64,000 nucleotides of DNA from Pseudovirgaria hyperparasitica (taxonomy: Eukaryota), in the NCBI GenBank assembly GCA_010093815.1, contig ML996569.1, one strand, 5' to 3'. The translations under genes were made by a program, and so were the position numbers. Below, one piece after another: positions 1 through 30,083 of the stretch. Positions within the stretch are counted from its first letter, which is position 1. Each line of letters opens with the position of its first letter. Below the pieces are notes generated by a model. The model worked only from the letters and a program-made list of their open reading frames with translations. It had not been told where the DNA came from and did not search any database.

Positions 1-1765
1 CTGTCCGAGCATAAAATAGGCCAGTGGGATCATACTTCTGCTTTACTTGAAGCAACTGCCCATAGTTTTCGCCGTAGAAGACGCTCTGCCACTCTGGCTC
101 GAAAGGATCTCCCTCGTTGCCGTAAGCATACTTACTGTCAGGCATAAGAAGATCTATCTCAGGTATAATATCATTCGTCATCAGTGCGAGGTTTTGAGTA
201 TTAAGGACTCTGTTTGTTCGGTCGTGGAAGCTTTTCTTGCTGTTAGTAATTGCAACGATTTGTTGTTCATCTCGAGTCGACTTACGTTCCAACGACCAGA
301 CTCACGTACGATTCTCTCCACGCTTGATTCACGGCATTTGGTGATTTTGAGGGCTTTGATACGTTGAACGACACGCCTGAGAAGACTATCCCGTATCTCT
401 GAAGTGATTGCATAGTTTCCGCGATGCCGCTCGGATTATCCCTCAAGACCCTGCGAGGTATCAGTCGACTTCCAATGTCGAAAGATGAGGTCTCGGTGAG
501 TGGATTCATGGCCTCATACATGTCCAAGAATGTAGGGAATTCTCGAGACAGGTATGCTGAAAATGATGAGCATCTGCTATACAAGACCATGGCACAGGCC
601 ACTTACTATAGTTGATTCCAACACCACTCAAGTCTTGCAGAAGCGTACTATGCAAAGCATCCATCCCGGCTTTGCCCATCCCATGCCCAACTGCAGGGGA
701 AACGATAAAGGTCGAATTCGTGCTTAGCCAGTTGCACGAAATGCCAGCATCGAGAAGTGTCGGAAGGTGCTCAAGATAGATTTCCACCCCCTTGTAGAAT
801 GTTGCCTCATCGACGCCTACCATGCTCCAGGTCAGATTTGAGGCCGATGTTATGTCGTCCGGATGCACCTGGAGCGTCAATGACCAGACCGCGCCGTACG
901 ATGCAGCCCCTCCCCCTGACAGTGCCCAATAAAGATCTGCATTCTCTGCCGGCGAAGCAACGATGAAGTCACCAGATGCAGTGACAACCTCCCATTCCAG
1001 AGCCTGGTCGGCGCCTAGCCCAAATTTGGACGCAAGTAGTCCATGGCCGGTCCCTTGGACATAACCTCCAGCAAGACCAACGCTAGGACATGTCCCTCCG
1101 ACAGTCACTAGCCCTTCGTCGTGCGTAACACGAAACGCGTCCATGAGCTGGACACCTGCGCCGACTTTAAGTGCTTTCCCCGTGTAGTAATCAGACTCGT
1201 AGTCGAGAATCTCGGTATACTTGAGATGGTGCGTCCAGAGACCCAATGCACCGGCACCCGTCGACTTTCCAAGCCAATCATGACCCGTGTTTCGAATCAC
1301 AAGCCGGACATTATGTCTGTTTGCAAACCGAATTGCCGCTTTATAGTCGAACATTTCACGAGCATCAATCGCATACTGGATGTACGTTCCAAGGATACAT
1401 GACTGTTCTCGCGGCGTAAATGGATCGCAGCTTTGATTGGCAAAGGTCGGTGCCATGATCGACGAACTTGAGTTGATGTGCGTCTCTGGGAGTGTCCAGG
1501 CTTCCTGGATGGCCTGGCAGGCATCTTCATCGTAGGGACCAAACTCGCTGTCGTGGCAGGGGCTGGCCAGGGGTACTGTGGATATGAGACGACCGTTTAC
1601 TGTGGTGTTGAGTTCGTGCCATTTATCTGATGTTGGCCAGCACGCATCACCGGGGAAACATCGACAGGTGTTCGTGGGTGCACTGTATGTGCCAGGCACT
1701 GAAGATGCTAAGTAAATGAATAACACAAAGTGTAGAGCCTCGGATATGAGCCCTAGAAAGTACAT
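1..1765 (-). CDS. Secreted FAD-linked oxidoreductase, BBE/isoamyl alcohol oxidase-like (3' end outside window)
   Basis: Signal-peptide-like N-terminus, CRCFPGDACWP, RNTGHDWLGKS (FAD-binding His), GGTCPSVG, LYWALSGGG. Introns at about 557-606 and about 231-285 restore the frame through a BBE C-terminal segment (AYGNEGDPFEPEWQSVFYGENYGQLLQVKQKYDPTGLFY) that runs off the window. Confidence 0.92.
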
Positions 1766-2733
1766 TATTCTTGCTGGATATACGATAATATCGAGATCGA
1801 GGATCGCATTAAATGCACGGGATAGCCAGCATATTCGACAAGCATCCCATCTTGGTCATATTAACTTCAGTACTATTTCATCAGCATTCTGTTATTCTGT
1901 AAATATTGAAAAGTTACCGGACACGAGCATTCCGACTATCCTCTTGGCAAGGGACTTACATGGTAAGGGGCGCATGGGATTAGCCGTACCCTGCTGTGAC
2001 AAGGATGTCGTTCTTGGCGAACTCACATTCCTTCGATCTGCCTGAGACATGAATATTTCGCTAATAGCATTGTCCTACATTATCATCCTCTGCAAGGCTA
2101 TGAACGAAGATTCAGAGATGAATAAGCGAAGCTCGGAACAGAGATCTTTCGAACACTGCCTCCCCTGCAATCAGCAGGTTTGCCGGAGATAAATGTAACC
2201 CTTTCATGCAGTGCTGTGCCAAACGGTGGTGCTGCACCGAGTTTCCAAGGTCTTCATGCAATATGCTTGCCTGTCACTGACTTGAACGGTCGGAATAATG
2301 CAGGCTAGCATTACCCGTGAAAGGTGGGCCTGTCCGTAGTCATGGGCAGCCGTACGTGTCATGGGCATTGAGCCATAGCCAATCGCATAGATGCTATCCA
2401 AGCGGAGCACAAAAGAAAGCGCTTGAGGGAACGGGCTGTTCCGGTCAGCCACAGATTAACAGAGCCGTTTCTGGGGCGTAAGATGGCCAGATTGCGTCTA
2501 TGCATGTATGTCGAAGATCCATATCCCCCCTGAGACTCAATTCGCCATTTACAGATGCCAAGTGCTTAGACGGCTAGCAAGGTAAATCAGCCGGGCAATA
2601 ATTGGGGCAAAGTATACAGTACAGTAATTAACACAGGGCAGGCAGCCAATGGAAAGAAGTCAGAAATATCAGTAACACTGTCGGAGGATCAGGTATGACT
2701 CTAGGGTATTATAGCTATAGAATACGCTATCGT

Positions 2734-4680
2734 TCATATCCTTCTTTCGAATGTACAGAGGACCTGGCCCGGTTGGGCGGTAACTTGATCCTTCATATCA
2801 CGCCACATGGTTTCCTCGTCGTATCCTGGAGAGAAAGAGACGTTGAAATTGCGGAGTACATTAGCAGTAACGAGGCGAAGTTCAGCGTATGCCAGAACCT
2901 TACCGACACACTGACGGCTGCCTATATGAACATTAAGAAGACTGATCAGCAACGCAATTCGTAGAGCAAGAAACGAAGACCTACCAAAAGAAAACGGCCC
3001 AAACGCGCGTTTATCTTTCACCAAATCTGGGCGTGAATACCACCGCTCAGGGATAAACTCGTCTGGATGGACGAACGCATTTTCCACTAGATTTGCTGTG
3101 AGCAAAGTGCAATTAGCAATGTCAAGATAACTTACTTCTCTTGATGACATATTTTGGCGCTGTGACTTTGGTTCCCGCAGGTATGAAGACATTATCTACT
3201 GTAAGCCCCTGCGGGCCTGTGATGCGCCCTCCGCCAGTCATCGCAGGAGGTACGAGACGTAAGATCTCCTGAATAACCCCGTTCAGATGTGGAAGTCCAG
3301 CTAGCACATTAGCATCTCCTATATCTACTGTTTCGATTTCCTGACGGATCTTTTCGGCATGCTCAGGATATTTCGCCAGATACCACCAAGTTGCAATCAG
3401 CGAGGCACGTGTTGTGTCACTATACCCATTGCAGTCAGCCCTGGACTAGGTCTTTAGACAGGATATCGAATGATCATACCTTCCAGCTACGATGGCCGAT
3501 ACTGCTGTGCCTCCCAAGAGTCTTTGCCGGCTTTGAAGGTCTCGCACCTCGCTCAAGTTGTGGTATTCATCGATGAACCAGGATGCCATGTCAGCTTTCT
3601 CGTCCGTTTGTAGCTGTTTCTCAATTATTACCATTCTCGGAGAATACGCAGCAACACTTGAACTCACTTCCATGCGTCTCGCCATGCGCTCCTCACAGTA
3701 TGAAACCATACGCATCCACGACTTGACTTTACCCAGAAAGGGTACAAATGAGAATGCCAATTGAGCGATCCAGACGGCGTCACTGATAGGACCAAGCAGT
3801 GCCAGGGCTCTCTTTTGGTGAATGATTGCGTCATGCGTAACCTTTTCCTGCATCATTCCAAAGCTTTTGCCAAAGACGACGTCGCCCATTGCATCAAAGG
3901 AGAACCAAGACATGACATCATTAATGTTTACTGGTGCACTGCTCAACTCCTGAATGCATTGGACCAAGTTGAGAGCCTGTTGGTAGATGCGAGGACGGAA
4001 CTCATCCATCGCTATTGGACGGTCAGCCAATGTTGCCTGCAAAACGAGATCATGACGAACCTTTCGTGGAGAGAGACTGCGTCCAGACCCGACGTCTGTC
4101 CCGATGATCTTGGGCATTTCTGGTAAATATCGCTGACGTTCTTGGCTGGAGAACATCATACCAAACATCTTTCGAATTGGTATTATGAGCTCCATCCAGA
4201 AGCTCTATCGCCGACGGGTGGAAAATGGTGATTTCGTTAGGGCCTGAACGTGTCAGCAGCGCCCTATGTGCCGAGATATGTAAGCTTACCCGTTCTGACA
4301 ACAGTTCCATACTTCTCGTACAGTCTCTGCATTACCAGATAATTTGTTGAATTCCTGGCGTGGTATATATGCCAAAATTTGGAAACAGCGGCAAGTCTAG
4401 GTCCTGGGAAATTGACAAGTTTGTGGAACATTGTGCGATAGACAGCAATGCTAGCAAACAGCGATATCAGATACCAGGCTGATAAAGTGATTGTGTAAGT
4501 ACATGCCGCCAGGATATCGTCGAGATATCGCTGTAATGTACCAAGGACAAGCGCAGCGATCGTAGCATGAGCGCCGATGATAGATCGAGAATGTAAGTGC
4601 CATTCTCCATGTATGAAGAAACCCAAGTGTGAGGTGACGCCAGCAACAATGCCACAAAGGGGGATAGCAAAGTTCATCAT
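2734..4680 (-). CDS. Cytochrome P450 monooxygenase (multi-exon)
   Basis: N-terminal TM segments and FPGPRLAAVSKFW. Splicing gives I-helix AGSDTT, ExxR (EILR), PERW and the heme motif FSFGSRQCVG across an intron. Canonical GT/AG introns join ORFs 4264-4770, 4050-4310, 3446-4195, 3122-3307 and 2734-3192. Confidence 0.95.
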
Positions 4681-5000
4681 GCTCAAGTAGACACTTGGCT
4701 CGATAGTGGCAAGCGGACCAGTTTGAATCAGGAGTCGAAGGTAAGCTGTGATCGTTGTTTGGAGATACACGACAAGAGAATCAATATGGAATGCTTGTGA
4801 AGGTGTACAAATGGTTGAGTGTATTGAAATACATGTAATAGAAGCTGTTTATTACAAATAATACCCATATAGACCATCATGGCCTGCCAGTCGAATCGCT
4901 TTTACTTAGCATATGCAAGTGACTTAGCCCCAGTGTCTTTCGAGCAGAACAAGCCAGATCCTGGTCGCCGGCGATGATCGTCTCCTTTAGTTTTGACGCC

Positions 5001-6701
5001 CTAGACCCTGCAAAGCCGACCGTCTGACTGCTCTGACCATCGCTCACTGCCGACCGCCGTTCTAGCCCAAAACAGGTCATCTTGGTCATAGCGCCTCTTG
5101 ATAGCCAAGAGTCGCTTGTAGTTCTCGCCGAAGAAAAGCGTCTGGAAATCTGGCTGCTGAAAGTCTGCTTCGTTTAGATATGCACCTCCATTCGGGGTGA
5201 TCTCAGCTATTCGCGGGAGCAAATCGTTAGTAATCAGATCCTGGCCAGCTATTGTCTTGGAATAGTCTGTGTAATTGATAGGTGTGCCGACCACCATTCC
5301 AAACAAAGACTTGCGCCAGTAAGGATTTGCAGAAACATTATAAGGGCCGCTTTGATTCACATTGAACGTAACGCCTGTACTGATTGTCTGTTCGCTGATG
5401 TAACGAATGACTTCAACAAGGGCTGGCGTGTCTTCTTCAACAAGAGAGCGTGGTATCAAGCGACCTGCAACGTTATAGTCCGACACATTCCAAGTTGACG
5501 TGAGAGAGTCATATCCAGGGAGGAACGAAGAGTATTCTGTGGAAGAATACGAGAACTCCTGCTTGAGGTCGCTCATCTTGTCAAGTGTTGGTTTAATCAA
5601 GAGATCGAGTTCTTCTTTATGGATTCCAGGGCCCATTGCCGGCGACATGAGCAGACCGAAAGGTGCTGCGACCCACGCAACAAAAGCTCCGGCATCTGCA
5701 AGTGCGGGCAGGTTCTGTAAGAAAGTCCCAAGAACTTCGTATATTGCATCTGCATTCGTGCCATTGTTCATGAGAGAAAATGTGGCCATAGTGATATGAG
5801 TATTCGTAAATGCCTTAACAGTCATAGACACGACTACTGCGTAAGTGCCTCCTCCGCCTCCACTCAGTGCCCAAAGCAGGTCGGCATTAGAAGTTGGTGT
5901 GGCCTTGACTAGGCGGCCATTAGCAGTGACCGCTTCAATTTCAAGAATCTGATCCGCTGCAAGACCGTGTCTGGAAGACAGAGGCCCATGACCTCCACCC
6001 TGGGAGTACCCCCCCGCGAGTGCAACTGTGGGACAGTTACCACCGACGACCATGAGGCCATTCTGCTCAGCGAATGCATACGCTTCTTGTGACTCAATAC
6101 CAGCACCGACGCGGATTGCAGGACCATCATAGCTAGTTCCATGATATTCAGATATCAATTCAAGAGACTTCAAGTGGCGTGTCCATATCGCGATCGCGTA
6201 CGCTCCAGTGGATCTCCCGAGGTAGTCGTGCCCGGTATTCCGGACTACTAAACGAATGTTGTTCTTTCGGGCAAACTTGATGGTCGCCTGAACATGTTCC
6301 ACTGAGGTCGCATTCACAGAGTATACGACATGACCACCAAGCGTACAAGCAGTATCCGAGCCTACAAAAGGATTGCAGCTGTTGTTACTGAAGGGATAAG
6401 CCATCGGCGATGAGGAAGATTCGAGATGGGTCTCTGGAAAGAACCATACGTTACGCAAGGCATCACACTGAGCTTGATCGAAGTCAGGCTGGTGACAAAC
6501 GGAGGCAATCGGAACCGTGGATATCAGGCGGCCGTTTACGGTCTTGTTGAAGTCGTCGAACGCTTTCGAGTCCGGCCATGAGGTATCTCCAGGGATCGTG
6601 CGGCATTGTGATGTACGGCTGGGCCAATTACCATGTTTCCTTGCGATGGCAGCAACAAGGACAATGAACGATAGAAAGAACAAGGTGCGTCGGCGAACCA
6701 T
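5001..6701 (-). CDS. FAD-linked oxidoreductase, BBE/isoamyl alcohol oxidase-like (intronless)
   Basis: 566-aa ORF with a hydrophobic N-terminus, RNTGHDYLGRS, GGNCPTV, LLWALSGGGGG and a BBE domain (AYLNEADF...YKRLLAIKRRYD...AVGSERW). Confidence 0.95.
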   Translation of the reverse strand: MVRRRTLFFLSFIVLVAAIARKHGNWPSRTSQCRTIPGDTSWPDSKAFDDFNKTVNGRLISTVPIASVCHQPDFDQAQCDALRNVWFFPETHLESSSSPMAYPFSNNSCNPFVGSDTACTLGGHVVYSVNATSVEHVQATIKFARKNNIRLVVRNTGHDYLGRSTGAYAIAIWTRHLKSLELISEYHGTSYDGPAIRVGAGIESQEAYAFAEQNGLMVVGGNCPTVALAGGYSQGGGHGPLSSRHGLAADQILEIEAVTANGRLVKATPTSNADLLWALSGGGGGTYAVVVSMTVKAFTNTHITMATFSLMNNGTNADAIYEVLGTFLQNLPALADAGAFVAWVAAPFGLLMSPAMGPGIHKEELDLLIKPTLDKMSDLKQEFSYSSTEYSSFLPGYDSLTSTWNVSDYNVAGRLIPRSLVEEDTPALVEVIRYISEQTISTGVTFNVNQSGPYNVSANPYWRKSLFGMVVGTPINYTDYSKTIAGQDLITNDLLPRIAEITPNGGAYLNEADFQQPDFQTLFFGENYKRLLAIKRRYDQDDLFWARTAVGSERWSEQSDGRLCRV

Positions 6702-7734
6702 CTCTACCCAGGTCTATGGCCGCGAAAGGCTAGCGGCGTAGGGTAGTATGTGCAAGATGCTGGGAATGCTCAGGTCTTGTGTTGATGATGCCAGAACAAT
6801 ATGAGAGACAAGACTTGACTGGACAGAGATCGGGTCGGCAAGGTTTCCAAGGGAAAGAAGGCATATATGCACTTGATTGGCGTGGCGAAGGCGTTCGGGA
6901 TTGGAGACGTTCCAGTCTCGATCAATGACACGTCCACACCATGATTAGGTTGCAATCTCACATCAGCTGGTAGGCATGACACGACCCTGGACATAGGTTT
7001 CACTCTACATGACAGGAGGTCGAACACGGGGAAGCTGAGATGAAGTCTTTGATGAGCGCTGTCAACAGTGAGTGTCAGTGTCGCACAGCATGCGCCTCCT
7101 GTGCCGCTTAGAGCGATTAACACGGATACCCGTTTCCGTAGACGCGGTAAATCTACAAAAGAGGTTAGCTGCTTACCAAGACCCCTGTCTGGTAGACTGC
7201 CAAGATAGGTAGTTAGCCCCGGATCGCGTAACCCAAGTATCACCCCACCCTCGCGTGGACGAGCCCCACAGGCCGGTCCCCGTGTTTAGCGTCCTGTCGC
7301 TTCGCTTCGGCCCTTCCCATTCAACCGCAAAGGCATTGCTCGCCTCCATTCCTTCGCATGTACACATCATCAATCAGCGCTCCTTTGATCGAGTTTCTTC
7401 CCATGTGGCCCCTTAGGATCGTGAGACTCTTCATCCCTGAACCTAGAAAATGCAAGTCCGTGCATAATCGGGTCGATCGCTCAGCTCGTTCATCTTCCAG
7501 ACCCCTTTTGTGTTGGTTGCGCACCACTGGCAAGCTAAAAAAAAAGTAAAGGATGGAATGACATGACATCGATGTACATATATCAGAGGAATCAAAAAGC
7601 GGATGCTATTGAATTACAGTTCACCAATCATTCTTCGGCCTGCCAAGTAGGACTTCACCTTTGTGCGGATCCTTCCACCTCCATAATCTGGTAGGATTCT
7701 GAAGACAAGATTAGATACGAACATTCTATACGCC

Positions 7735-8944
7735 ATGGTCAGCCCCCGTGGAGAGGCTTTGGCTGCTTGGTTGTCTGTTTTCACTGTACTCACCGTAGGT
7801 GTCCTGATCCTGCGCTTTTACGCAGTCAGGATACAACAACGAGCTCTTCGTTCCGATGACTATCTCGTCGCTGGCGCTACCATCGCAATGCTTGTTCTTG
7901 AAGGATGTACCTTTTGGGGTAAGCAGGCGCTTTTGGTACTCCGCTGAGTTGAGATTGACTGTTCTATGTTAGCGATTCACAATGGGCTCGGGGCTCGAGC
8001 AGCCACGCTGGATTGGCCACAGCAAGCTGTACAGATCAAAGTAGGTCAATAGCACAGTCACCCAGTGGACTCATACTAACTGTTGATGACAGTTGATGGT
8101 TTCCGCATTCTGGACATGGACAATTGCCACGACAGGATGCAAACTCGCTGTGCTTCGTCTTTACTTGGCCATATTCCACACCAAGACTTTCAGATACATT
8201 AACTTTGTGCTCATGGGACTGGTTGCATGCTACCCGTTTGTATTCATTCCCGTATTCATGACACAATGTACTCCTGTATCTGCCGCTTGGGACCCCGTAT
8301 TGTCCCTCACGCACTGCCGACCGAGGGAGCAGCACGAACTGGCGTCAGTCGCTGTCAACGTCGCATTCGACCTCTTGATTGTTCTTCTCCCTCTTCCCTG
8401 GATTTGGAGTTTGCAGATGGCGACAAGGAGGAAGGTTACCGTCACAGCTATGTTCAGTCTCGGGTTGTCGTAAGTCTCAGTGACTGAAGCAATATACCTT
8501 GCACTATTATCTGTAGCTAACATCTGTCATAGCATTGTTGGAGTAATGATCTGGCGACTTGTTACCACCGCGCTTCCAAACCCGAACCCGGATTTCACAT
8601 ATGACGTATACATTCTTGCTCTGCAGAGCCATTTGGAACTGTGGCTAGGTCTTCTTGCTGCTTCTCTACCTACTCTAGCCCCATTGCTATCTCGAATGGT
8701 CCCTGAGAACGTCAAAAGTTATTTCAAAGGATCCTCAGTACGGAGTCCGAAGCGCAACAATATGATCAGGTCGTTTGGCCAAGGTAGATTCCCGCGGACA
8801 AAGGCTAAGAGCGACCTTGACTCCATCGACGGACTCGATATCCCTCTACATAGCATAGAGCGAAGACAGTATATACAGGTTTCGTATGGTAAGAACGACT
8901 CCAAAGCGTCCGAACAGGGTAAGCCTGTCGGTGTCGAGCTTTGA
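7735..8944 (+). CDS. PTH11/SAT4-like (fungal rhodopsin-domain) multi-pass membrane protein, no CFEM domain
   Basis: LRFYAVR..DDYL, HNGLG, CKLAVLRLY, QCTPVSAAWD, DLLIVLLPLPWIWSLQMATRRKV, ELWLGLLAASLPTLAPL. Three short introns join ORFs 7735, 8093 and 8480. Confidence 0.9.
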
Positions 8945-9160
8945 GCTTCGCCATACTTGACACTAATTGTTTTTCTTGAGAGAAAATATGGTATCGAATC
9001 ATGATCTGGATTATGGATCCGTGTAAGTATGTATGTAAGAGACAACAAAATTCAAGTGATTGTAAGAGCTACTATCTGAACGACCCTGATGTGATGATGT
9101 CGATTGAAACTAACATATGATTTTCTGGGAACATCGCTCTCTAGTATATCTGAACTTGTC

Positions 9161-9574
9161 TCATCCGCGAACTGTCTTTTCATTCTCCACTCCAAACACT
9201 CTTAGCTCACTCCCTATCAAGAATTTTTCCTGCTCTGGTGCAAGCTTGTCCACATTGTCGCCCAGGCGGTTTCGAAAGAGAGTGAAATGTTCCTCATCAC
9301 GGAACACGAGCACTACGACACAGTCAAAGTCACACTCGGAAGGAGCGCCCATGAATGTCATTGGATTCCGGACGCTTGAAGTTTGATTGTCTTGTTGCTG
9401 ATTCTGGCCAGTTGGGACGTCTTGCTTCACATAGTAGCGTGTATGTGAGACTGGAAAAGTGTCGCCGACGATGCTTTTGAAGAAGGGCAGAAATTTCTCA
9501 TCCCAATGGGTTTGAAATTCTTCGAACGATATTGAGGGGTTTCGATTCTCAAGTGCGAGTACAGTGAATGTCAT
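9161..9574 (-). CDS. EthD-like dimeric alpha/beta barrel protein
   Basis: 137 aa with RNPSISFEEFQTHW, FPVSHTRYYV, DFDCVVVLVFRDEEHF and EQEKFL, the typical fungal EthD pattern. Confidence 0.82.
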   Translation of the reverse strand: MTFTVLALENRNPSISFEEFQTHWDEKFLPFFKSIVGDTFPVSHTRYYVKQDVPTGQNQQQDNQTSSVRNPMTFMGAPSECDFDCVVVLVFRDEEHFTLFRNRLGDNVDKLAPEQEKFLIGSELRVFGVENEKTVRG

Positions 9575-9749
9575 GATTGTCTCTTTAACCGCGTTGAACA
9601 GATTGTCGTGATTTGGGCAGGTATGATTCCCTGATAGTAGTAATTTTGATGAGCTCTATGAGAGTTCGAACGAAAGATCAACAGAGAATAGCAGAGACAG
9701 AGCGAAGTGAACAGTCTAGGGTTACACAGGACTTTCACCAGAGTTTACT

Positions 9750-10150
9750 GACACTGCTTGAAGAATAAATACACCTGGGAGAAGTCCGAAAATTGAGCGA
9801 GCCGCAACAGTGGTATGCCGATTTTAGTCCGTCGCATGTTAACCCTACAGAAATCGACACTCCTCAAAGAACAAATACACTTAGCGAAGTCCGAAAAATG
9901 AGCGAGGCGCAACAGTGGTATACCGATTTTAGTCCATTGCATGTTGACCCTACAGATATTGACATTCCTCAAAGAATAAATACACATTAGCGAAGTCCGA
10001 AAAATGAGCGAGGTGCAACAGTGGTATGCCGATTTTAGTCCGTTGCATATTAACCCTACAGAACTATCCACTAGATCAATCCGGATGCCGATTCTAGTCC
10101 GCTGCATGTTAACCCTGCAGAACTATCCCAGGTATAACACCTTGCTTGAA
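9750..10150. repeat. Imperfect ~105-bp tandem repeat (about 3 copies plus a partial copy)
   Basis: GAAGTCCGAAAA at 9781, 9886 and 9992 (periods 105 and 106). Each unit contains CAACAGTGGTATrCCGATTTTAGTCC..GCATrTTrACCCTACAGA. A further partial copy lies at about 10086-10130. Confidence 0.95.
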
Positions 10151-10532
10151 AAACTAGTGGTGAAGCAATTTTTGCGTCGTCTACTAGGGTACTGCGCTGA
10201 TTGTTACCAAACTGGCTTGGGACGTAACCCTTGCTTCTTGGCTCTGGGCAGGGTCAGGGGTATCACCTCCAGACAAAGACGGCACAGCCTCGTACGCTCC
10301 CCTACTTCATCTGTATGCAGGTAGGTAGCATATGGCCTTGATTCAAGCACCAAGGGGGTGTGAGAAGGTAACAGGTAACACAAGTATCATGCTGGCCTTG
10401 TGTGCTGCTATGGCATGTTAGTAGTAATCATAGCTACCCCAGCATAGATAAATCATGCCATATTCGTTGTGACTGACAGCCACTTCATCAAAGACACACA
10501 AAGTTCGAGCAGCAACATTTAAACATCTCACT

Positions 10533-11559
10533 ATGGATCCGCCATTTCCAAGCCCTGTAAAACAATGGCACAATGACATATATCCTGCAATCGAGCCTTC
10601 TAACCCCAAACTGAGCCACAAAGGCCACACAGTCGTAATCACAGGCGCCGTAAGTTATATTTACTCTCCGTTAACAGGATCATTCACTGATACAGATGAC
10701 AGGGTAGTGGTATCGGCCGAGCTAATGCCCTCGCTTTTGCTATTGCAGGTGCAGCCCGACTGGTACTCATTGGCCGAACTGAGGCCAAAATCAAGGAGAC
10801 TGAGGCTGCTATCGCATCAGAGGCAGGAAACTGCGATGTTATCACGTTTATTACTGATGCGAGCAATCTTGATGGAATGCAAGAAGTTGCCAGAGCTGTT
10901 GGTACTTGGCACGTTCTTCTTCTGAATGCAGGGTATATGAACAGTCCAGCTCCCGTCGCGACGGCCGACCTTGGAGACTACTGGAAAGCTTTCGAGGTAT
11001 GAATGTCCAGTAGCCTGACGATTACAGTTTGCCTCATCCACAGTTACTACCAGGTTAATGTCAAATCTACTATCGTTGGTGTGCAGTCATTTGCACCGAC
11101 TGCCGCCAAGGACCATGCTGCCATCGTAGCCCCAGTCGGAGGGTCTATGCAACTACCGACGAAGTTATTAGCAGGGCTATCGGGCTATCTTACTGCGAAG
11201 CTTGCAGTGGTGAGGATCATGGAGTTCCTCTCTGTAGAGAATCCATCTATCTTCTTTGCTACGTACCATCCAGGAATGGTGGATACCGAAGTCTTTCGGC
11301 GTTCCGGGGCAACACCTGATATGCTTCCAATGGACTCTCGTAAGAATGTTCCTGCTCTCCCATATACAGACTAACAGCTTTAGCTCAATTATCGGCCGGC
11401 TTTGTGCTGTGGTTGACACTCCCAGCAGCGCTTTTCTTGAATGGAAGATTTGTCTGGGCCAACTGGGACGTCGAAGAATTGATGGCAAGCTCGGACAAGA
11501 TAACTTCACAGGATTTGTTCAAGACGTCATTCACAGGATGGCCCTACGCCAGCACATAG
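10533..11559 (+). CDS. Short-chain dehydrogenase/reductase (3 introns)
   Basis: Spliced TGAGSGIG Rossmann motif, LNAG, YLTAK (YxxxK), HPGMVDT and FLNGRFVWANWDVEEL. Stop TAG at 11557-11559. Confidence 0.92.
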
Positions 11560-12297
11560 TGCCTATCATACCAGGACAGTCATATTCTTAGGGTCGGAGC
11601 AATCTTTCACTTTCAAAATGTATGGCGGGCTAAAAGTACAGCAAAAGGGGGCAAAAACAAGGCCAGGGCCGTTTACATTCTTTATTCAGCCATTAACTGA
11701 GTAATGCGCTCCTATGAAACTGAGTGGCTTTTTACGAGCCGTTTTAGCCTTTACGAGATCACTTCTCTAAACTCCACGCACTCCTCAGAGACACTCCAAC
11801 AGAGACACTCCTCATTTGGGGTATGCCATTGGTCATATCATCGCATTGAGACATTGGACCTGGTCATATAGGTCATAACCTAGTCAGCAAATCAATTAAT
11901 CCTTACCGCGACATACATAGCGACATACCAAGGATGAAGCCCGGCCAACCTGCAGATTGTGATAGTACTAGAGACTTCTAGACTCTACTCCAGTAGTTCA
12001 TGCAGACCGAGTGAGACTACTATATCAATCTCGGAGCAATGTCCATTCTAGTCTATTCGCACTAATGCTGACCTTAGGGGTGATGTCCGAAAGCGATGCG
12101 TAAACTTCGTTGAAACAAAACCAGATTGATTACTGGGTCGTATTAAAATACAACGTTAGATATGCCAGTTATGCATTCACTCATATATCAGACGCCGTCG
12201 ATTGTAACGGTACATATCTCGGCATTCATCTGCACGCTAAATGCGACGTTGTCTTATCAGTGACTATTGAGTCTTCCACAAGTACCTCCTATATTCT

Positions 12298-13236
12298 ATG
12301 AAGCATCCACAAAGTGAGATTATCTACTGGTCTGCCGCCACCTATAAGATGGTACACAAACTACGAGACCTTGTCCAGAACTTTTGGCTCTTTACGAAAG
12401 ACGATGCATGGACCTTCGTAGCCCCCAATACCATCTTCGGCCTCAGCAGTGCTCTCGCTGGCCGTGTATTTTGCAATCACAGTCAATCTTGGCAGGATAC
12501 CCTCTTGCGCGCCCCACTTGTCGTTCTCTTCAACTGGGCCACACTACTCATCTTCGATCTCGCAAATCAGCGTCTCCCCGAGTCTGTACGAGAGGATGCA
12601 CTCAACAAGCCGTGGCGACCGGTGCCTAGTGGTCGAATGTCAAGTGAGGCTGTCCGAATGACTATGCTGGCTTGCATACCCTTGGTTCTAATCCTGGGGA
12701 ACATGCTCGGAGCAGGCCCACAGTGTAATGGGATCATTATTCTGACATGGCTTTATAACGATTTGGGTGGCGGTGACCAGAACTGGGCTCTTCGAAATCT
12801 TATTATCGCTGTCGCATTTGGGTTGTTCAATGTGGGATCGTTGCGGGTGGCGGTAGGGGCAGGGAGTGAAGAGTTAGAATTAAGTTACCATGGGAAAATG
12901 TGGACTGTCATGATCAGTGCGGTGATCTTCACTACCATGCATGTACAGGACTTGAAAGATCAGCTAGGGGATAAAAGTCGAGGCCGACACACAGCGCCGC
13001 TGATATTGGGAGATCACTATGCAAGGTATACCATCGCAATTCCAGTGGCTGTTTGGTCCGTGATCATGTCAGTTTATTGGAACATGCGGCAGTGGAGTCT
13101 TGTACTCATTCTGTTAGGATCATATATCTCCTGGCGTTGTTTAATGTTGAGAAACAAGGAGGAAGATCGAAAGACCTGGCAATTCTGGGCTGCGTGGACC
13201 GCTGTCCTCTATATACTCCCAACTATTTTCAGTTAA
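12298..13236 (+). CDS. UbiA-family membrane protein, probable UbiA-type terpene cyclase (Fma-TC-like); alternative start 12349
   Basis: Multi-TM 312-aa intronless ORF with DLANQRLPESVREDALNKPWRPVPSGR, YNDLGG and HVQDLKDQLGDKSRGRHTAP. The NQ..ED first motif differs from the NDxxDxxxD of aromatic UbiA/Coq2 prenyltransferases. Confidence 0.85.
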   Translation: MKHPQSEIIYWSAATYKMVHKLRDLVQNFWLFTKDDAWTFVAPNTIFGLSSALAGRVFCNHSQSWQDTLLRAPLVVLFNWATLLIFDLANQRLPESVREDALNKPWRPVPSGRMSSEAVRMTMLACIPLVLILGNMLGAGPQCNGIIILTWLYNDLGGGDQNWALRNLIIAVAFGLFNVGSLRVAVGAGSEELELSYHGKMWTVMISAVIFTTMHVQDLKDQLGDKSRGRHTAPLILGDHYARYTIAIPVAVWSVIMSVYWNMRQWSLVLILLGSYISWRCLMLRNKEEDRKTWQFWAAWTAVLYILPTIFS

Positions 13237-13399
13237 CTATCAGACCTAATATGAGCCTGGGCTGTAGGAGGTTGTGGGTAGAGATCTATGACTATAGGTA
13301 TCAGTCGATAGTACAAAGGATACAAAGCCGATTAGCAGTGTGATCCAGGGAAATATCGTGATGCTGTGCTTGCATGTGCTCAATTCTAGTTGTCACGAT

Positions 13400-14520
13400 C
13401 ATCAAGATGTGATAGGTCGTACTCCAAGTTAAACTACAGTCGGCTAGAGATCGAGATCTTCTACAACGATTTAAATGATATGAAGATATTGAAATTAAGA
13501 TTTATTGCCATGTATATTACCAATGAGGACCTAAGGTATACAATAGTACGAGCAATGAAGGTCATATATATTTATCTATAACAATCGTAGATAGATGCAG
13601 GGAAGTTATTTCCTACATGGACGCCGGTTGCGTAACATTGAATACAGAAGAAGAAAGAATTCTAATTAATGAACAGAAGCTCTTGAAGCGTCAAAGCTAC
13701 TAACATACTACCCTTGAGGTAGAAGGTAGTTATCCAAGTAAGAGTGAGAGTACCATGGTCAAGACTTAGGTAGAACGTGCTATTTATTATCATGTGAACC
13801 CAGTGAAATGGCCCGGTATGTAATATGTATGAATCATAGCTAGGACTGATAGTAATATTATCTACGATATCGATATTGTCTAACTAAGTATTATAAGGCT
13901 AATACTATCGACAATTCTCCAATATAATACTAGACTTTGTTACTTGCATCTAAATAGAGAATAAGAGAAGAGATATCTCTTAAAGAGATCTACTATCTTC
14001 TCTACGATGGAGTTAGAGAAGATTTATATTAACTTTTCACTTTCTTTAAGATAGATATATTTCTATAGAGGACTTCTCTATAGGCGATTCCTTTAATCTC
14101 AATCTAATCTGTGGGAATCATATTATAGATACTCGAGAAAGGGGAATCTTCTAAGCTAATAGCTTCCTAGAGTATAAGATAAGATATCTATAAAGCTATA
14201 AAGCTATATTAACTACAGAAGTAGTAGTAGGTAGTTTCTCTAATACTATCATAAAGCCTATGCTAGAGACACGTTACATCTTTAACGGACTATAAGGTCT
14301 ATTGATAACTAATTAGGCTTCTACATATAAATAGATTATTATACTTATTAGGCTCTTTCTCGTAGTATACCTTATATAGGGATAGACTTATGATTATACT
14401 ATGACAGAAGGCATCTAGGTTGAGTATATACTACGCCTGTCTTATTTATTAAATGGACGCTGGTACCGAAAAGTGGATTCCATACACTGCTATGTTTATT
14501 TTCACGATTATAAGAGGTAC
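13400..14520. repeat. AT-rich, TpA-enriched tract; probable RIP-degraded repeat or transposon relic
   Basis: Visibly lower GC, abundant TA/TAG/CTA (e.g. TATAAAGCTATAAAGCTATA) and no ORF of 60 aa or more between about 13.6 and 14.7 kb. Element family not identifiable. Confidence 0.6.
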
Positions 14521-14930: not shown

Positions 14931-15991
14931 TCAGTCTTCCTTGCTAATGATAATTGAACGGGTCTCGACACTTCGTCGCTTGCAAGCCGTAGGGCTTGCT
15001 CGTGGGTTGGGGAAAGGTACGTGAGGACAAACTGTTGGGGTTAGCGTTAGAGTCTATATGTGAGATAGATAGAAATACACCGTGCTTGATCACCAGGCGC
15101 GGAGTCATAGCTGACGAATAGTACGGGCTCCTCGGGCGTCATATGCTCAAGCCAATACCTACAGAGTGGTTGTCAGTCTATCGTCGGAGGCTAGTAGTGA
15201 TTTCTGGCTTGTACCATTGTTGGGCAGGGTTATATCGAAGATAATAATTTTCGCCGACACGAGTTGGTATCACCCTGTCACACGCAATGAGATCGTTCTT
15301 ATCAACGGTACGGTAGTCGCAGTAAGCTAGCGGCATGTCCTCCAAGATAGGGAGTAATGAACGCCACGTGCTAAGTAGAGTGTTATTAGCCAGGCATCGT
15401 TCCTTGAGAAATTTCCATACTTCATGATCCTAAACCGATATCCACGCTTTGCATATTTCGCCATGAGCTCCCGAGGCAGGTGATGTCCGATGATTCTTGG
15501 TCCAGCTGCGCGTGATACATCAACATGAGCACCCTTTGCCGGCCGATCCGGGACTGTATCATCCCTAAGGTTGATAACACGACCAAGGTCAGCTCCATTA
15601 TCTCGAAGCTGTAAACATCTCAGCAGAATGGAAGCAGTTCTGATTGCTCACATACCTTTACGTCAAATGTGTAGACACATTCCACGTCAAGGAGCTTTTT
15701 GAGATACGTTTGGGTCTCAGATCTGTACTCTGCAACCTCTTCGTTTGTCTTTATCTCGGAAACGGATGTCTGATGGTTCAAGATTGTGAAGCCTACTTCG
15801 TTCAAGTCAAAAGGCTCTTTTTGTTCTCTGACATCACGTATCAGTACGGAGTCACGTTTTTCGAATTTCAAATTGTTAGTAGTGACAGAACTGTCGTATT
15901 CTGCTGCAGACACAAGAACCTGGTATGGTTTCTCATTTTTGTAAAGGGGCAAATCTGCAATGAATTCGATCGACGTTACAATGTCTGGCAT
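14931..15991 (-). CDS. AsaB/CmcJ/GA4-desaturase-like (putative Fe/2-oxoglutarate hydroxylase/desaturase)
   Basis: Exon 1 has LYKNEKPY, IRDVR and LNEVGF. Downstream exons read by hand give KGAHVD (HxD), TWRSLLPILEDMPLAYCDYRTV, YNPAQQW/YWLEHMTPEEPVLFVSYDS, CPHVPF and RRSVETR, with stop at 14931-14933. Confidence 0.82.
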
Positions 15992-22373: not shown

Positions 22374-25300
22374 ATGGCCCCTGTCTACACGTATGTACGT
22401 ACTCAGATGCTTCGGACATTGCTCCGGTACCGCTGGTTGCAATATCACTGCGCCTTTGGTGCTAGCCTATGGATTGACACCATGTCTCAAGACTCGTTCA
22501 TGCTCACCCTGTGGTCATTGTTTGTTTTTGCTAGTTGTACATGGTGGTGTGGCTCAGAGTTTATGCATGTCGTTTCATGAGCGGTCGACACGAGATTGAC
22601 TTTAGTCATATTACGGCTATAATGCTGTAGTGTTCACTTATGTTACAATACACAGCGATCCAAGTGTTAGGAAGGTAGGAGGCACTCGGGAAGCATCACA
22701 TTCACATAGGATGCACGAGGCTGAATCACTTGGCATTCTTCAGGGTCACTCTTGTCCCCTGAACTCTTGGATTTTATGGTAAATTGTATGCGACAAGAAG
22801 ATTCCAGAGAGCGCCGCAGTGGCAGGAGCCTCCGACTCATCAAACAATGTAGAACCTATGTGATTAAGTCAGCAGAATCAGACCTTGCTAACAGTTCTTC
22901 AGGTCTAATTCCAATTACATCGCGCAGCGCTGGGAAGACGCCCGGCAGATATGTCGAGAAAGCTTTTCAGACGACGAGAACCGATATCTCGACGAGATTA
23001 AAGATTGCGATGAGTTCCAGATCAGCTTGACTGCCGTTTCGGCGCATCTGGACAGGGACGAGCAGTCAAAACTCTTGTATCAGCTGAAGAATACTTTGCG
23101 ATCCTTGGAGAACTTTGTTGCTCTTCTTGCAGTCACTATTGGCAGGACTCCACTCGATGCCTGCCTAATCTGGGGCTTGCTGAGCTTGTTGATACAGGTA
23201 TGTGCACTGCAATCACAACTAGGCCCGTTAGCAAATTGACCTGACATTCCCTCATCGCATAGGCTGCGGCAAGAATGCCAACTGTGCTGACGGAAACGAT
23301 CGATATGCTGAACAATCTCGGGCATGACCTCGAAGTGCTGCAGATTCTGGAACGGTCCTTTGCCGACAATCCCACAATGAGAGACGACCTCATCGCGATA
23401 TTTGTCGATATAATCACGTTCTGGGTGAAGATCATCCACTTTCTACGTCGGAATCAACAAGGTTGGATGTATTGACGATAGATTCAGGGCTAAGCTGACA
23501 AAAGCACTAGAAACGTCTATCAAGCTTTATTGGTCTGCAGTGCAGAAGGACTGGGAGGCCACGAGCAAGAAAATCCGGACCCGATCATCACAGATAAAGG
23601 AGAAAGCGGATGCTCTAGCAGCTACTTCGATGCAGCCTGCCGCTCTACTAGAGAAGATTGAGCGCCTCAACGAGTTACTGATCAGCCAAAGACCTGGTAC
23701 CGAAGACACACAGCAGAGCATCTTCCCCTGCCATAACATACCGTATCTGCAGAACTCTCACTTCAAACAGCGAGATGCAGAGATCCGTGAGATTAGTCTT
23801 CATCTTGCCCACGACGAGACGGCCCCTTCGTTCAAGAGTTTCGCCATTTGGGGGCCTGGAGGCGTCGGAAAGACCCAAGTGGCCCTTGAATACTGCTATC
23901 AGGAGCTCGGGCGACAAATCGACCTGATCATGTGGATTGACTGTGAGACCGGCCTCTCAACATCCAAAAGCTTCTCGTCTCTCGCTAAGATGTTGCAACT
24001 CAACGGGGCCGAAAACGACACCGATCCGGACAATGCACGCCATTTGATACTCGACTGGCTCCGCAAAACCAGTACGGCAGTTGGTTGAATCCACACTGTT
24101 CGGAACCGGCGCTGACTTTCATTTCTAGACATATCCTGGCTCATGGTTCTCGATAACATAGAAGATACGAAGCTAGCTTGGGATTGCTGGCCTCACGCGC
24201 CCCACGGTTCGATACTCGTAACCTCCAGGACCGTCATCAACGTAAACGACCCAACCGCCGCCGGCATGGAGATCAAAACCTTCAATACCGCAAAGGGCGG
24301 CTCGATTCTCCTACACCTCGTCAATCGATACCCGTACTCTGACGACGAGAAGCACGCCGCAGAAGAACTCTCGCACGAGCTTGGTGGTCTGGGGCTTGCG
24401 CTGACCGTCATGGCAGCGCAGATAATCAGCCGACAGAAGAGCATCCGCGCCTTTCTCAAGTTCTACCAACAACATGCTTTACAGCTCCATCGAGAGACGC
24501 GAGGGCTCGGGATGTCTTACAAGGCCTCGCTTCGGACTTGCTGGATCAGTACGTTCGAAAGCTTAGGCCCTGAATCGACGACTCTGCTGAGCATCATTGC
24601 TTTTATTGCCCCTATTGAGACCTCAGAAGAGCTCTTTCAGCCCTCGGATACATCGGATATGGAAGAGCGGCTATTACTGTGCGCAGATGAATTCACGTGA
24701 GTACCTATGTCCGATGTCGAACTTTGCAAAACACCAAGGTAAAAACGCTAACTCTGCGCCGCGAGTTATGATAATGCCATGCAAGAGCTGCTTTCCGCAT
24801 CCCTCGTCCATCGCGCAGCAGGTGCCAACTCCATCAGTATCCACCGCCTCATCCAGCGTGAATTCCGAAACTTCATGTCCATAGATCAACTCTACTCCTC
24901 GTTTCTGGACAGTGCAACACTGCTCCACAAAGCGTTCCCGAAGCAAATCAACGGGAACAGCCTCAGGAATGAGTCTGTTCAATGTAAGAAGTACATCGAA
25001 CACGCCCTCTTCCTGTGTCGTCAGTGGCAGACATACAAGTTCAAGCCACGTACACCAGGCGATTTTCTCACTTTCACACGACTCATGACAAACTGCGGCT
25101 GGTAAGTGGGCACGAACAAGAACCCGCCAACCCCAATGCCTTCTTTGTGCAATGCTAAGAGAGACCCAAGGCACCTCCTAGAAGAAGGCATGTGGAGCGA
25201 GGAAATCGAACTAATGCAAACCGCCCTGCACGTCTGCGAAGACAAATCCGGGCTCGAATACGCACACCTCTGCAACACGTACGGCCACCTCGAAGTCGAG

Positions 25301-26215
25301 CGCGCAAACGCCTCCAAAGGCCTCGAGTATCTCGAGACATCCCGCAAGATCCGTGAGACCTTGCTCGACCCCATGCACCCAGAGCTCGCGAACACGTACA
25401 ACAACATCGGCAACGCCGTGCTGCAGGAGTACGAGACGCCCGAGGCCGTGCCCAGGGCCATCGAGCTGTACTCGCGGTCTGTCAAGATCAACGATGCGCC
25501 GTCGTCGGCGTTCATATGGCATCTTAATCTGAGCAGGGCGACGAGGTTAGCGGGGGATTATGCTCGGGCGAGGTTCCATGCTGCGAAGTCGAGGGAGTGT
25601 GTGGATGAGATGTTTGAGCCGGATACACACTGGGATGCGACGTGAGTTTTCAGGCTTCTATGGATGTCAACCAAGGGTATCATAATACTAACACCGTAAC
25701 CACAGAACCAAAGTCCACCTAGCCAACATCCTCTTCGACGAAGGCCTCATCCCCGAAGCCGAAGCCCTCTGGACCTCCGCCTTCAAAGCCTTCCAAAAGA
25801 CAAGCGAGACCCGCGCCGCCACAGTCGCCGTCCAGCTCAAACTAGCCCACGTCACAATGCTAAAAGGCGACCACAAACAAGCCGTGTACGTACCCGTACC
25901 CGTACCTCCCCCTCCCTTCCCACTTTTTCTACAACTCCCCCCCCAATTAAACTCACACACGAAAACAGCATCATGCTCGAGCGCCTCCTCACAATCGCCC
26001 AACTTCGCCTCCCCCTACTCGGCAACAACGGCGAGATCGCCCGGGTGACGCGCCGGCTCGCACAGGCGGTCAGGCTGTGCGGCGACACGGTCAAGGCGGA
26101 GCAACTCCGTGAGCGGGCCGAGCGTATGAGGCTGGAGATTCAGAAGGGGAGGAAGTATCAGCTGCCGGATGAGGATCAGTCGTACAACATTCTTGTTTTT
26201 AGCGAGTTTTGGTGA
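22374..26215 (+). CDS. Fungal NLR-like STAND protein: helical N-terminal domain, NB-ARC and TPR repeats (start uncertain; clear coding from about 22903)
   Basis: N-terminal domain IWGLLSLLIQ..IFVDIITFW, P-loop GPGGVGKT, Walker B WLMVLDNIED, GSILVTSR, LGGLGLAL, IHRLIQ and TPR-like HPELANTYNNIGNA. Exons join at canonical splice sites and the stop is at 26213-26215. The first exon at 22374 is a phase-compatible guess that requires a ~510-nt intron. Confidence 0.85.
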
Positions 26216-29444: not shown

Positions 29445-30083
29445 GTAATTGTTTCGCGGGGTGGTAAGTATATATGTGTATTTTTGAAAGGTTCAATTCA
29501 GTGATTTGAGCGGTTCGTCTGTAATACTTGAAACTGGGACGGATTAGCATTGTCATGATGAGAAGGAAGGCTGGTAACACTACGAGCGAACCTAAAGAGA
29601 GTCATAAGTGGGCTGCAGCTTTCAGTCGTATTTTCATCCTCAGTCTTGTGAAGTGAAAGAAGAGGCTGGTGGGAAGTCAAGGTAAGGCACAGAGACAGAG
29701 CGCACAGTCAACGGTAGGTAGTGGTGTCATACAACCAAGGGCCCAGCTTGAGGCGGTGGCAGTACCCAAGCTAGCTGTTTATAGTTTAGCTTAAACGGTC
29801 CACACGCCACATGAGTACCAACAGCATCTGATTGAAGCAGAAGCATAACCACACTGCATAATAGCCAGTAAACACACCGCTGCAAACATCAACCAGCCAG
29901 CCAAACCAACCCAGGCCATCTGACTCTCTCCCCTTGCACATCCCCTATTCACCCATACATTCACAATGCCTAAACCATAATCATCTGTCCCATTACCCCA
30001 CATCTACCCCACCATATGCCAGATTTTGCAGTCATCAGGGAGTGTATTTGAGCGGGTGGTCTATCACTACTATTCACAACATA

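Follow-up and report, generated by a model that had tools for sequence, protein, structure and literature searches.

Membrane-bound terpene cyclases of the UbiA type are a class of fungal enzymes that has been described and mined. The HEx survey counted 326 clusters of this class, and two of its UbiA-type clusters, TC1 and TC3, gave oxidised sesquiterpenoids in yeast (PMC5895447). The consensus of motif II in these cyclases is QDxxDxxxD, and mutagenesis of the Antrodia cinnamomea enzymes showed the motif aspartates and a conserved Tyr to be required (PMC9835599). In Penicillium brasilianum, the Pb_bis cluster encodes a UbiA-type bisabolene synthase (BisA), a P450 (BisB), a GPCR-like protein (BisC) and a decarboxylase (BisD); Pb_BisA produces beta-bisabolene in yeast, and both papers cite Luo et al. 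2022 (Org Chem Front) for a subgroup with a 'distinct motif I' (PMC11393291, PMC11745945).

The locus studied here comes from Pseudovirgaria hyperparasitica, a fungus parasitic on rusts and living on rust sori. A Pfam profile search of the open reading frames in the window, by which we mean the whole stretch of 64,000 nt that was analysed, found seven adjoining genes at 1-13236 (Table 1). From left to right, their families are FAD_binding_4; p450; FAD_binding_4 with BBE; Fung_rhodopsin; EthD; adh_short; and UbiA, the same order and families that a first-pass annotation had read from the sequence. The exon models of the seven genes translate with zero internal stops. All seven are covered by spliced contigs from one sample (runs X2 and X3 are a single sample), which lack 14/14 coding introns and one 5'UTR intron, the 15 joints listed out of 19; this intron skipping is the sole ground for taking X2 and X3 as transcript-derived, none of the runs listed being recorded as RNA. 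The seven-gene cluster is intact and transcribed in one sample, an observation that, coming from one sample, shows no co-regulation.

Table 1. Features of the cluster and its right flank (positions in the window; a dot marks a feature without strand).
Feature	Position	Strand	Details
BBE-like FAD oxidase 1 (BBE1)	1..1765	-	exons 1765-607, 556-286, 230-<1; PF01565
Cytochrome P450	2734..4680	-	541 aa, 7 exons 4680-4290, 4243-4061, 4011-3668, 3613-3480, 3419-3136, 3086-2985, 2921-2734
BBE-like FAD oxidase 2 (BBE2)	5001..6701	-	566 aa, single exon; PF01565+PF08031; P0133
PTH11-like (non-CFEM) 7TM protein	7735..8944	+	346 aa, 4 exons 7735-7918, 7973-8040, 8093-8469, 8533-8944; PF20684
EthD-domain protein	9161..9574	-	137 aa; PF07110; Atlas EthD clusters, score 0.93
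Tandem repeat, 105-bp x3	9750..10063	.	TRF, 88% matches; divergent EthD/SDR intergenic region
Short-chain dehydrogenase (SDR)	10533..11559	+	290 aa, 4 exons 10533-10649, 10703-10996, 11054-11339, 11384-11559; adh_short
UbiA-type membrane terpene cyclase	12298..13236	+	single exon; PF01040; motifs; 48% identity to WBQ21654.1
AT-rich stretch with RIP-like signature	13300..14500	.	base composition

The P450 model equals P0121 (KAF2759925.1, a record named Pseudovirgaria hyperparasitica) at 541/541 residues, with intact heme, ExxR and AGxDT motifs and 6/6 introns skipped in the contigs; the SDR retains TGxxxGxG and YxxxK, and 3/3 of its introns are skipped. Both BBE proteins, which share 40% identity, carry the RxTGH and GxCxxV motifs, whose His and Cys we take to be the covalent FAD attachment residues, and BBE2 has both domains (FAD_binding_4 and BBE). 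BBE1 reads through 553 codons without a stop, its introns are skipped in contigs, and it has a 5'UTR intron at 1865-1959; its last codons lie past the left edge of the window, where one contig extends 688 nt beyond base 1, so the left border of the cluster is outside the window. On the right, the AT-rich stretch is the probable border: against the cluster interior, its GC is 0.34 vs 0.48, TA/AT 1.16 vs 0.72 and (CA+TG)/(AC+GT) 0.84 vs 1.27, and the fall of contig depth to 6.5 or less past 14.3 kb is at most a weak hint in the same direction.

The UbiA protein has two possible starts, ATG 12298 (312 aa) and ATG 12349 (295 aa, as annotated, P0001). It matches PF01040 with 77.6 bits against a cut-off of 34.2, and its AF2 model is helical (pLDDT 95), with 6m31 as best Foldseek match (E 6e-7). 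The motif II residues Q217, D218, D221 and D225 of QDxxDxxxD are invariant in 62/62 alignment rows, as are N90, Q91 and D100 of motif I, N90-x9-D100. This motif I is of the longer NQRxPxSxxED type and matches both N95QRHPGSVAED105 of Pb_BisA and motif I of P0101, while the short form Nxxx(G/A)xxxD of the Fma-TC/Tps1A/EriG subgroup does not fit the window enzyme and fits only 3/160 family sequences. Y153, also invariant in 62/62 rows, would be the putative equivalent of Tps1A Y155. P0101 is WBQ21654.1, whose record name, a database label, is (-)-alpha-trans-bergamotene synthase; its 48% identity to the window protein extends over 93% of the UbiA query. In a midpoint-rooted FastTree phylogeny, which holds no aromatic prenyltransferase or Fma-TC outgroup sequences, the two proteins fall in a common 50-leaf clade (support 0.907), and each of the three leaves nearest to P0101 lies on a contig that also carries a BBE2 relative. 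Homologs in Botrytis reach 48% identity.

Motifs, nearest named relative and tree position thus uphold the first-pass assignment of the UbiA protein as a terpene cyclase. Its likening to Fma-TC stands for the cyclase class and fails for Fma-TC proper, since the protein belongs instead to the cyclase subgroup with a distinct motif I (Pb_BisA and the Stachybotrys enzymes, including the alpha-trans-bergamotene synthase); WBQ21654.1 is probably a member of the subgroup of Luo et al. The branch of the window protein is long (0.62) and its distance from P0101 amounts to 1.69 substitutions per site. At five conserved sites (T82, G134, Q142, F177 and M257) the protein differs from the subgroup, an ordinary number, as 27/62 rows have as many. 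Together, branch, distance and departures allow no skeleton to be called.

The gene set recurs in other fungi, and it is this renewed finding of the same genes together that makes the grouping exceed chance. UbiA and P450 relatives were linked in 5/5 pairs, 1-4 accessions apart (gaps 1, 2, 1, 4, 2). At the 27 distinct loci that span 10 kb or more, the partners of UbiA were P450 (20), PTH11-like (18), BBE (8), SDR (5) and EthD (0), and all four recurrent partners were present at 4/27 (L008, L010, L023 and L053). L001 and L002 keep the order and strands of the window (BBE, PTH11, SDR, UbiA), L002 without the P450; elsewhere BBE, SDR and PTH11-like genes again stand beside UbiA in shuffled order. 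In Lineolata, the UbiA record KAF2458349 is accompanied by a BBE (-352) and a P450 (-353), and in H. trugodes the BBE adjoins UbiA. The P450 orthologs share 57-67% identity; SDR orthologs (44-51%) adjoin UbiA in 5 distinct loci, and close relatives of BBE2 occur on the same contigs as UbiA and P450 relatives. The distances of BBE (rho 0.37, p 0.14, n 9), SDR (-0.02, n 6) and P450 (-0.06, n 21) carried no signal of correlation with those of UbiA. A Nodulisporium BBE record, AVY05502.1, matched no described cluster, and the text and supplements of PMC5943271 are silent on it.

The linkage expected from the first reading therefore holds for P450, BBE, SDR and PTH11-like genes and not for EthD, which was absent at 40/40 distinct UbiA loci; a search of 80 loci with E values up to 1 likewise returned no EthD match. 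EthD is a local addition and not a conserved part of the cluster, and so is the second BBE. A CmcJ/NvfI-like neighbour gave the same negative result in that search and is not counted as conserved. Within the intergenic repeat between EthD and SDR, a 44-nt core occurs in 4 copies. Run X1 contributes a small share, with coverage confined to the EthD region.

The PTH11-like protein scores 96 bits against PF20684 Fung_rhodopsin, with 3/3 introns skipped in contigs, and a single Cys in its first 60 residues means that it has no CFEM domain. As judged from its recurrence, the gene is a conserved part of the cluster and not a bystander. Its product would be a non-enzyme partner retained with the cluster, for which a role as receptor or regulator is the simplest inference. 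The UbiA-linked PTH11-like proteins form no single clade: the window protein and those of six loci fall in a 79-82-leaf clade and the others outside. Their distances correlate with those of UbiA (rho 0.31, Mantel p 0.003, n 18), for which shared ancestry of the hosts may be the cause. PTH11-like proteins are the largest fungal receptor-like family and, to our knowledge, few of their ligands are known. Two thirds of related loci retain such a gene next to a terpene cyclase, which suggests that there is a ligand and brings this question within reach of a test. A bolder proposal, which we regard as unlikely, is that cyclase, P450, BBE, SDR and PTH11-like protein form an uncharacterised cassette that is widespread among ascomycetes. 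Its 7TM protein would be a working part, either as receptor of the sesquiterpenoid that the cluster makes or as membrane partner of cyclase and P450, and the cassette would probably also encode the pathway to the 6/4/5/5 bergamotane lactones, whose gene cluster was not found in the literature searched. If true, it would provide a gene-encoded ligand-receptor pair and de-orphan a PTH11-like receptor.

Taken together, these data point to a stand-alone sesquiterpenoid cluster, a reading that we consider likely, whose product would probably be a bergamotane or bisabolane; cyclase motifs, tree and conserved linkage support the earlier proposal of a sesquiterpenoid pathway of cyclisation and oxidation. 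Substrate, skeleton and order of steps are those we infer as follows. The membrane cyclase would bind FPP and Mg2+ via motif II and D100, ionise FPP and close it to the bisabolyl cation. Within this sesquiterpenoid reading, our first guess, with roughly an even chance, is that the cation closes again to alpha-trans-bergamotene; its quenching to bisabolene or bisabolol would be a plausible though lesser prospect. The P450 would then hydroxylate the cyclase product, probably more than once, and the SDR and the two BBE-type flavin oxidases would convert alcohols or lactols to an aldehyde, acid or lactone, or close an ether ring, EthD acting as a local helper. The end product would be polyoxygenated and similar in type to a xylariterpenoid, massarinolin or brasilamide. 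Xylariales and Pleosporales, two orders to which many of the UbiA homologs belong, are reported sources of polyoxygenated bergamotanes.

The seven genes might instead be the right-hand part of a larger, fumagillin-like hybrid cluster, in which the terpene made by the cyclase is decorated by a PKS, an NRPS-like enzyme or an acyltransferase encoded to the left. BBE1 does cross the left edge, on a contig of 1.87 Mb, EthD proteins are often found in polyketide clusters, and relatives of the locus have extra genes (an MBOAT at L008, an A-T-R NRPS-like gene at L017 and L072, GMC oxidases and methyltransferases). The window ORFs that were scanned, 15 at 1-20 kb and 19 out of 41 with a length of 150 aa or more at 20-64 kb, yielded no PKS, NRPS or soluble terpene synthase, in agreement with what the first-pass annotation had claimed; the longest ORF at 20-64 kb (854 aa) is CPSF100-like. 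Against a hybrid cluster, the 240 ORFs flanking related loci contain no PKS ketosynthase or condensation domain, and at L002, the closest syntenic locus, AT-rich DNA (GC 0.37) with no ORF of at least 110 aa lies to the left of the BBE. In the fumagillin cluster, an HR-PKS and an acyltransferase accompany the cyclase; neither was seen in the scanned window ORFs or among those 240. We therefore hold the hybrid arrangement to be improbable.

The fold itself cannot tell a cyclase from a prenyltransferase (4od4 is also matched, TM 0.60), and several homologs are labelled '4-hydroxybenzoate polyprenyltransferase' by JGI. The UbiA protein could thus be a PKS-independent aromatic or heteroatom prenyltransferase (acting for instance on 4-hydroxybenzoate as in aty/bis-type pathways, or on a diketopiperazine), with oxidases leading to an epoxyquinoid-like product; PKS-free UbiA pathways such as aty/bis exist, and diketopiperazine farnesylation has been described. 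We give this very little credence: the aromatic-prenyltransferase motif NDxxDxxxD is missing from the window protein and from 160/160 family sequences, and the only functionally named homolog among the matches listed is a terpene cyclase. All 16 NCBIfam matches are far under their cut-offs, and none is named 4-hydroxybenzoate prenyltransferase; a Shiga-B model match in this search (E 0.096) was taken as chance. Equally far-fetched, in our estimate, is a cyclase of GGPP or GPP resembling EriG, or a pathway of UbiA and P450 only, the other genes being co-located but independent. Partner content differs among loci, and motif II is common to the UbiA-type diterpene cyclase EriG (PMC9835599); however, no GGPP synthase was found in the window or in the scanned flanks of related loci, both characterised enzymes with the window-type motif I are sesquiterpene synthases, and BBE, SDR and PTH11-like genes are repeatedly found beside UbiA despite the shuffled order.

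A stand-alone sesquiterpenoid cluster that is compact, intact and transcribed lends itself to stepwise reconstruction in yeast or Aspergillus, and may reveal the genes behind the many orphan bergamotane and bisabolane lactones of fungi. An antifungal effect is described for some compounds derived from bergamotene, which is relevant given that this fungus inhabits rust sori. As matches, we rejected the syd and lpg clusters, which use other cyclase types, and NsBERS, a soluble class I enzyme; PMC8403587, PMC4205913 and PMC8705726 yielded nothing on this cluster.

Among described proteins, WBQ21654.1 of Stachybotrys sp. resembles the window UbiA in identity, both motifs and clade, but it is not its sister and differs at 31/143 conserved columns. 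Compared by description, Pb_bis shares the motif I type and the combination of cyclase, P450 and GPCR-like gene, whereas BBE, SDR and EthD are not reported for it and its P450 resembles Fma-P450. The HEx clusters TC1 (Trichoderma virens) and TC3 (Botrytis cinerea) also pair an ascomycete UbiA-type cyclase with a P450 (PMC5895447), and may overlap with the cluster family of the window. The tps1/tps2 loci of Antrodia cinnamomea likewise combine a UbiA-type sesquiterpene synthase with a tailoring P450 (PMC9835599), but are basidiomycete, with canonical motif I and methyltransferase tailoring. The fumagillin cluster of Aspergillus fumigatus also encodes a P450 and a membrane cyclase of UbiA fold that carries QDxxDxxxD (PMC9835599, PMC5895447), although Fma-TC carries the short motif I and makes beta-trans-bergamotene. 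Since this class of membrane-cyclase clusters is already known and mined (Fma-TC; HEx), the locus is a new member of it and not a new kind.

The seven families that the first-pass annotation had read from the sequence, in order a first BBE oxidase (BBE1), a P450, a second BBE oxidase (BBE2), a PTH11-like membrane protein, an EthD protein, an SDR and a UbiA-type cyclase, were all recovered by Pfam where it had placed them. The window DNA is fungal and contains introns, and exon models without internal stops were obtained for the P450 (541 aa), BBE2 (566 aa), the PTH11-like protein (346 aa), EthD (137 aa), the SDR (290 aa) and UbiA (312 aa, or 295 aa if the annotated start is used); BBE1 has 553 open codons and exits the window at base 1. 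Catalytic motifs are unbroken in the P450, BBE1, BBE2 and the SDR. The P450 model equals letter for letter the protein record P0121 (KAF2759925.1), named Pseudovirgaria hyperparasitica, a species described as a mycoparasite on rust sori (PMC3317363), and the UbiA and BBE2 records lie on the same 1,869,782-nt contig. Contigs from sequencing runs X2 and X3, which represent a single sample, cover all seven genes and skip 14/14 coding introns, each with GT..AG ends, which demonstrates their transcription and splicing there; being a single sample, it gives no evidence on co-regulation.

The AF2 model of the UbiA protein is all-helical (pLDDT 95) and matches UbiA-superfamily structures, with archaeal DGGGP synthase (6m31) as top match and no fungal UbiA-type cyclase among the matches listed. 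The claim that the UbiA protein is a terpene cyclase gained support from its motifs and its relatives. QDxxDxxxD is found at residues 217-225 and is invariant in the aligned rows (62/62), while NDxxDxxxD occurs in none of 160 UbiA family sequences. Motif I has the longer form N90-x9-D100, in agreement with Pb_BisA (PMC11745945), an enzyme that yields beta-bisabolene in yeast (PMC11393291). Among the 120 matches listed of 434, one homolog carries a functional name, the Stachybotrys protein WBQ21654.1, named (-)-alpha-trans-bergamotene synthase and 48% identical to the window protein. A FastTree phylogeny of 160 leaves places both in a common 50-leaf clade (0.907), of which the window protein is the first, long branch, at a distance of 1.69 from WBQ21654.1, which is not close. 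The predicted function of sesquiterpene cyclase is thereby well supported; the skeleton it would make is not.

In named genomes, at least 5 of 10 P450 relatives have a listed UbiA relative on their contig, and at least 7 of 10 have a UbiA or BBE2 relative there, with UbiA-P450 accession gaps of 1 (Biscogniauxia, Astrocystis), 2 (Corynespora, Nemania) and 4 (Lineolata). For at least 12 of 117 UbiA relatives, one of the 119 BBE2 relatives listed is on the same contig; accession numbers in H. trugodes and Lineolata, and locus tags in Plenodomus, show the two genes to be adjacent. In the public Hypoxylon texense model P0254 (Hte_011769), which adjoins the BBE ortholog, a PTH11-like C-terminus (60% identical) and the P450 ortholog are given as one gene, most likely because annotation merged two neighbours rather than through a true fusion. 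When close PTH11-like relatives were picked without reference to the cluster, at least 4 of 10 shared a contig with a listed relative of a cluster enzyme, UbiA in Periconia and Delitschia and BBE2 in Massariosphaeria and H. crocopeplum; the six misses are not evidence of absence, since comparison was made only with the 120 matches listed.

From a metagenome scan the best 80 of 307 loci were used, of which 70 with an unbroken UbiA segment formed 40 groups and 10 were left out. Partners were counted in flanks of up to 10 kb in the 27 of 40 groups, phylogenetically non-independent, that offered at least 10 kb, at cut-offs in summed tblastn bits of 80 (P450), 45 (PTH11-like), 200 (BBE), 200 (SDR) and 30 (EthD). 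P450 relatives were found in 20/27 groups, PTH11-like in 18/27, BBE in 8/27 and SDR in 5/27; no group had an EthD relative at that threshold. The first four partners occur together, in shuffled order, in four groups (L008, L010, L023, L053). At loci L001 and L002 the BBE, PTH11, SDR and UbiA genes keep the order and strands of the window, and neither a P450 nor an EthD was found; the L002 four-gene locus (2137-10876), which has AT-rich DNA and a NACHT-ankyrin gene at its flanks, is a natural minimal variant without P450. Given these linkage counts, the conserved core is cyclase, P450 and PTH11-like gene, to which a subfamily adds BBE and SDR; EthD and the second BBE are local to the window cluster. 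The co-localisation implied by a seven-gene cluster thus stood for P450, PTH11-like, BBE and SDR near UbiA and did not extend to EthD or the second BBE. At loci L035 and L065 a sterol-methyltransferase-like gene accompanies the UbiA-type cyclase and a BBE oxidase, with no P450 relative detected, which suggests pathways to C-methylated terpenes.

With 37-95 PTH11-like genes per genome, as given for Peltigera (bioRxiv 10.64898/2026.06.16.732702), and an assumed 40 Mb, about 2-5% of loci would have one within 20 kb, against the 18/27 observed; this expectation is genome-wide, and the rate beside other biosynthetic genes would be the proper control. PTH11-like genes also appear in diterpene clusters, according to a figure legend (PMC4617483), and as BisC of Pb_bis (PMC11393291). 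UbiA distances correlate weakly with PTH11 distances (rho 0.31, p 0.003, n=18) and not with P450, BBE or SDR distances, and the UbiA-linked 7TM proteins belong to more than one clade. Taken at face value the enrichment is real, with several possible meanings; that the protein is a functioning receptor or partner of the pathway seems unlikely.

We consider it probable that the window genes form a stand-alone sesquiterpenoid cluster. That they are instead a piece of a larger hybrid cluster is improbable: at related loci Pfam found no ketosynthase or condensation domain in 150 of 238 flanking ORFs from nine loci, nor in the 90 further ORFs with a length of 200 aa or more at the remaining 18 loci (16 of which had such ORFs, all of them scanned). 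The same scans identified MFS transporters, GMC oxidases, methyltransferases, one MBOAT and two A-T-R NRPS-like enzymes. To the right of the cluster, beyond an AT-rich stretch that is probably a decayed transposon, lie a CmcJ/NvfI-like oxidoreductase, an amidase, an NB-ARC/TPR gene and housekeeping genes; the oxidoreductase is probably outside the cluster, since no relative was found near any of the 80 UbiA loci. A prenyltransferase is a very remote reading of the UbiA protein, whose motifs and named homolog point to a cyclase; all other readings together are just as remote. The tandem repeat between EthD and SDR may be either the relic of a repeat or an amplification with a regulatory role.

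Features of the window within and to the right of the cluster
Feature	Position	Strand	Remark
105-bp x3 tandem repeat, 44-nt core in four copies	9750-10128		divergent EthD/SDR promoter region
AT-rich DNA, RIP-like dinucleotide signature	13300-14500		between cluster and right-hand genes
CmcJ/NvfI-like oxidoreductase, with introns	15030-15990	-	NF041278, single exons score below cut-off
Two ORFs, 263 and 148 aa	17286-18489	-	no Pfam family; no match in UbiA loci; probably exons of a single gene
NB-ARC + TPR gene, fungal NLR-like	23429-26215	+	
784-aa ORF without Pfam match	27138-29492	-	C-terminal part presumably resembles an NYN/LabA-type nuclease domain
MFS transporter, fungal-specific transcription factor and copper amine oxidase genes	37390-42832; 55945-58501	+; -	distant from cluster

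In the proposed sesquiterpenoid pathway, FPP would be ionised and closed 1,6 to the bisabolyl cation, with an optional 2,7-closure, steps modelled on the chemistry of Fma-TC and bisabolene synthases. Going by the chemistry of their families, the SDR and BBE enzymes may oxidise alcohols and lactols or close rings. The P450 would oxidise the cyclase product, as demonstrated for tps1 (PMC9835599) and the HEx clusters (PMC5895447).

Clusters with a UbiA-type cyclase are a recognised class: the HEx study reports 326 in 581 genomes, 13 of them expressed and products solved for two ascomycete clusters (PMC5895447). The literature seen in part, covering few subscription journals, held no description of a cyclase-P450-BBE-SDR-PTH11 cluster or of this locus; Luo et al. 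2022, Yang et al. 2024 or the HEx supplement may contain an ortholog. The cluster is real, intact, transcribed and conserved, and its class is a known one. The gene set would suit polyoxygenated bergamotanes such as xylariterpenoids, massarinolins and brasilamides, compounds from Xylariaceae, Graphostroma, Eutypella, Massarina and Paraconiothyrium, for which the available part of a 2022 review gives pathways as proposals only and urges a search for the genes (PMC9787638).
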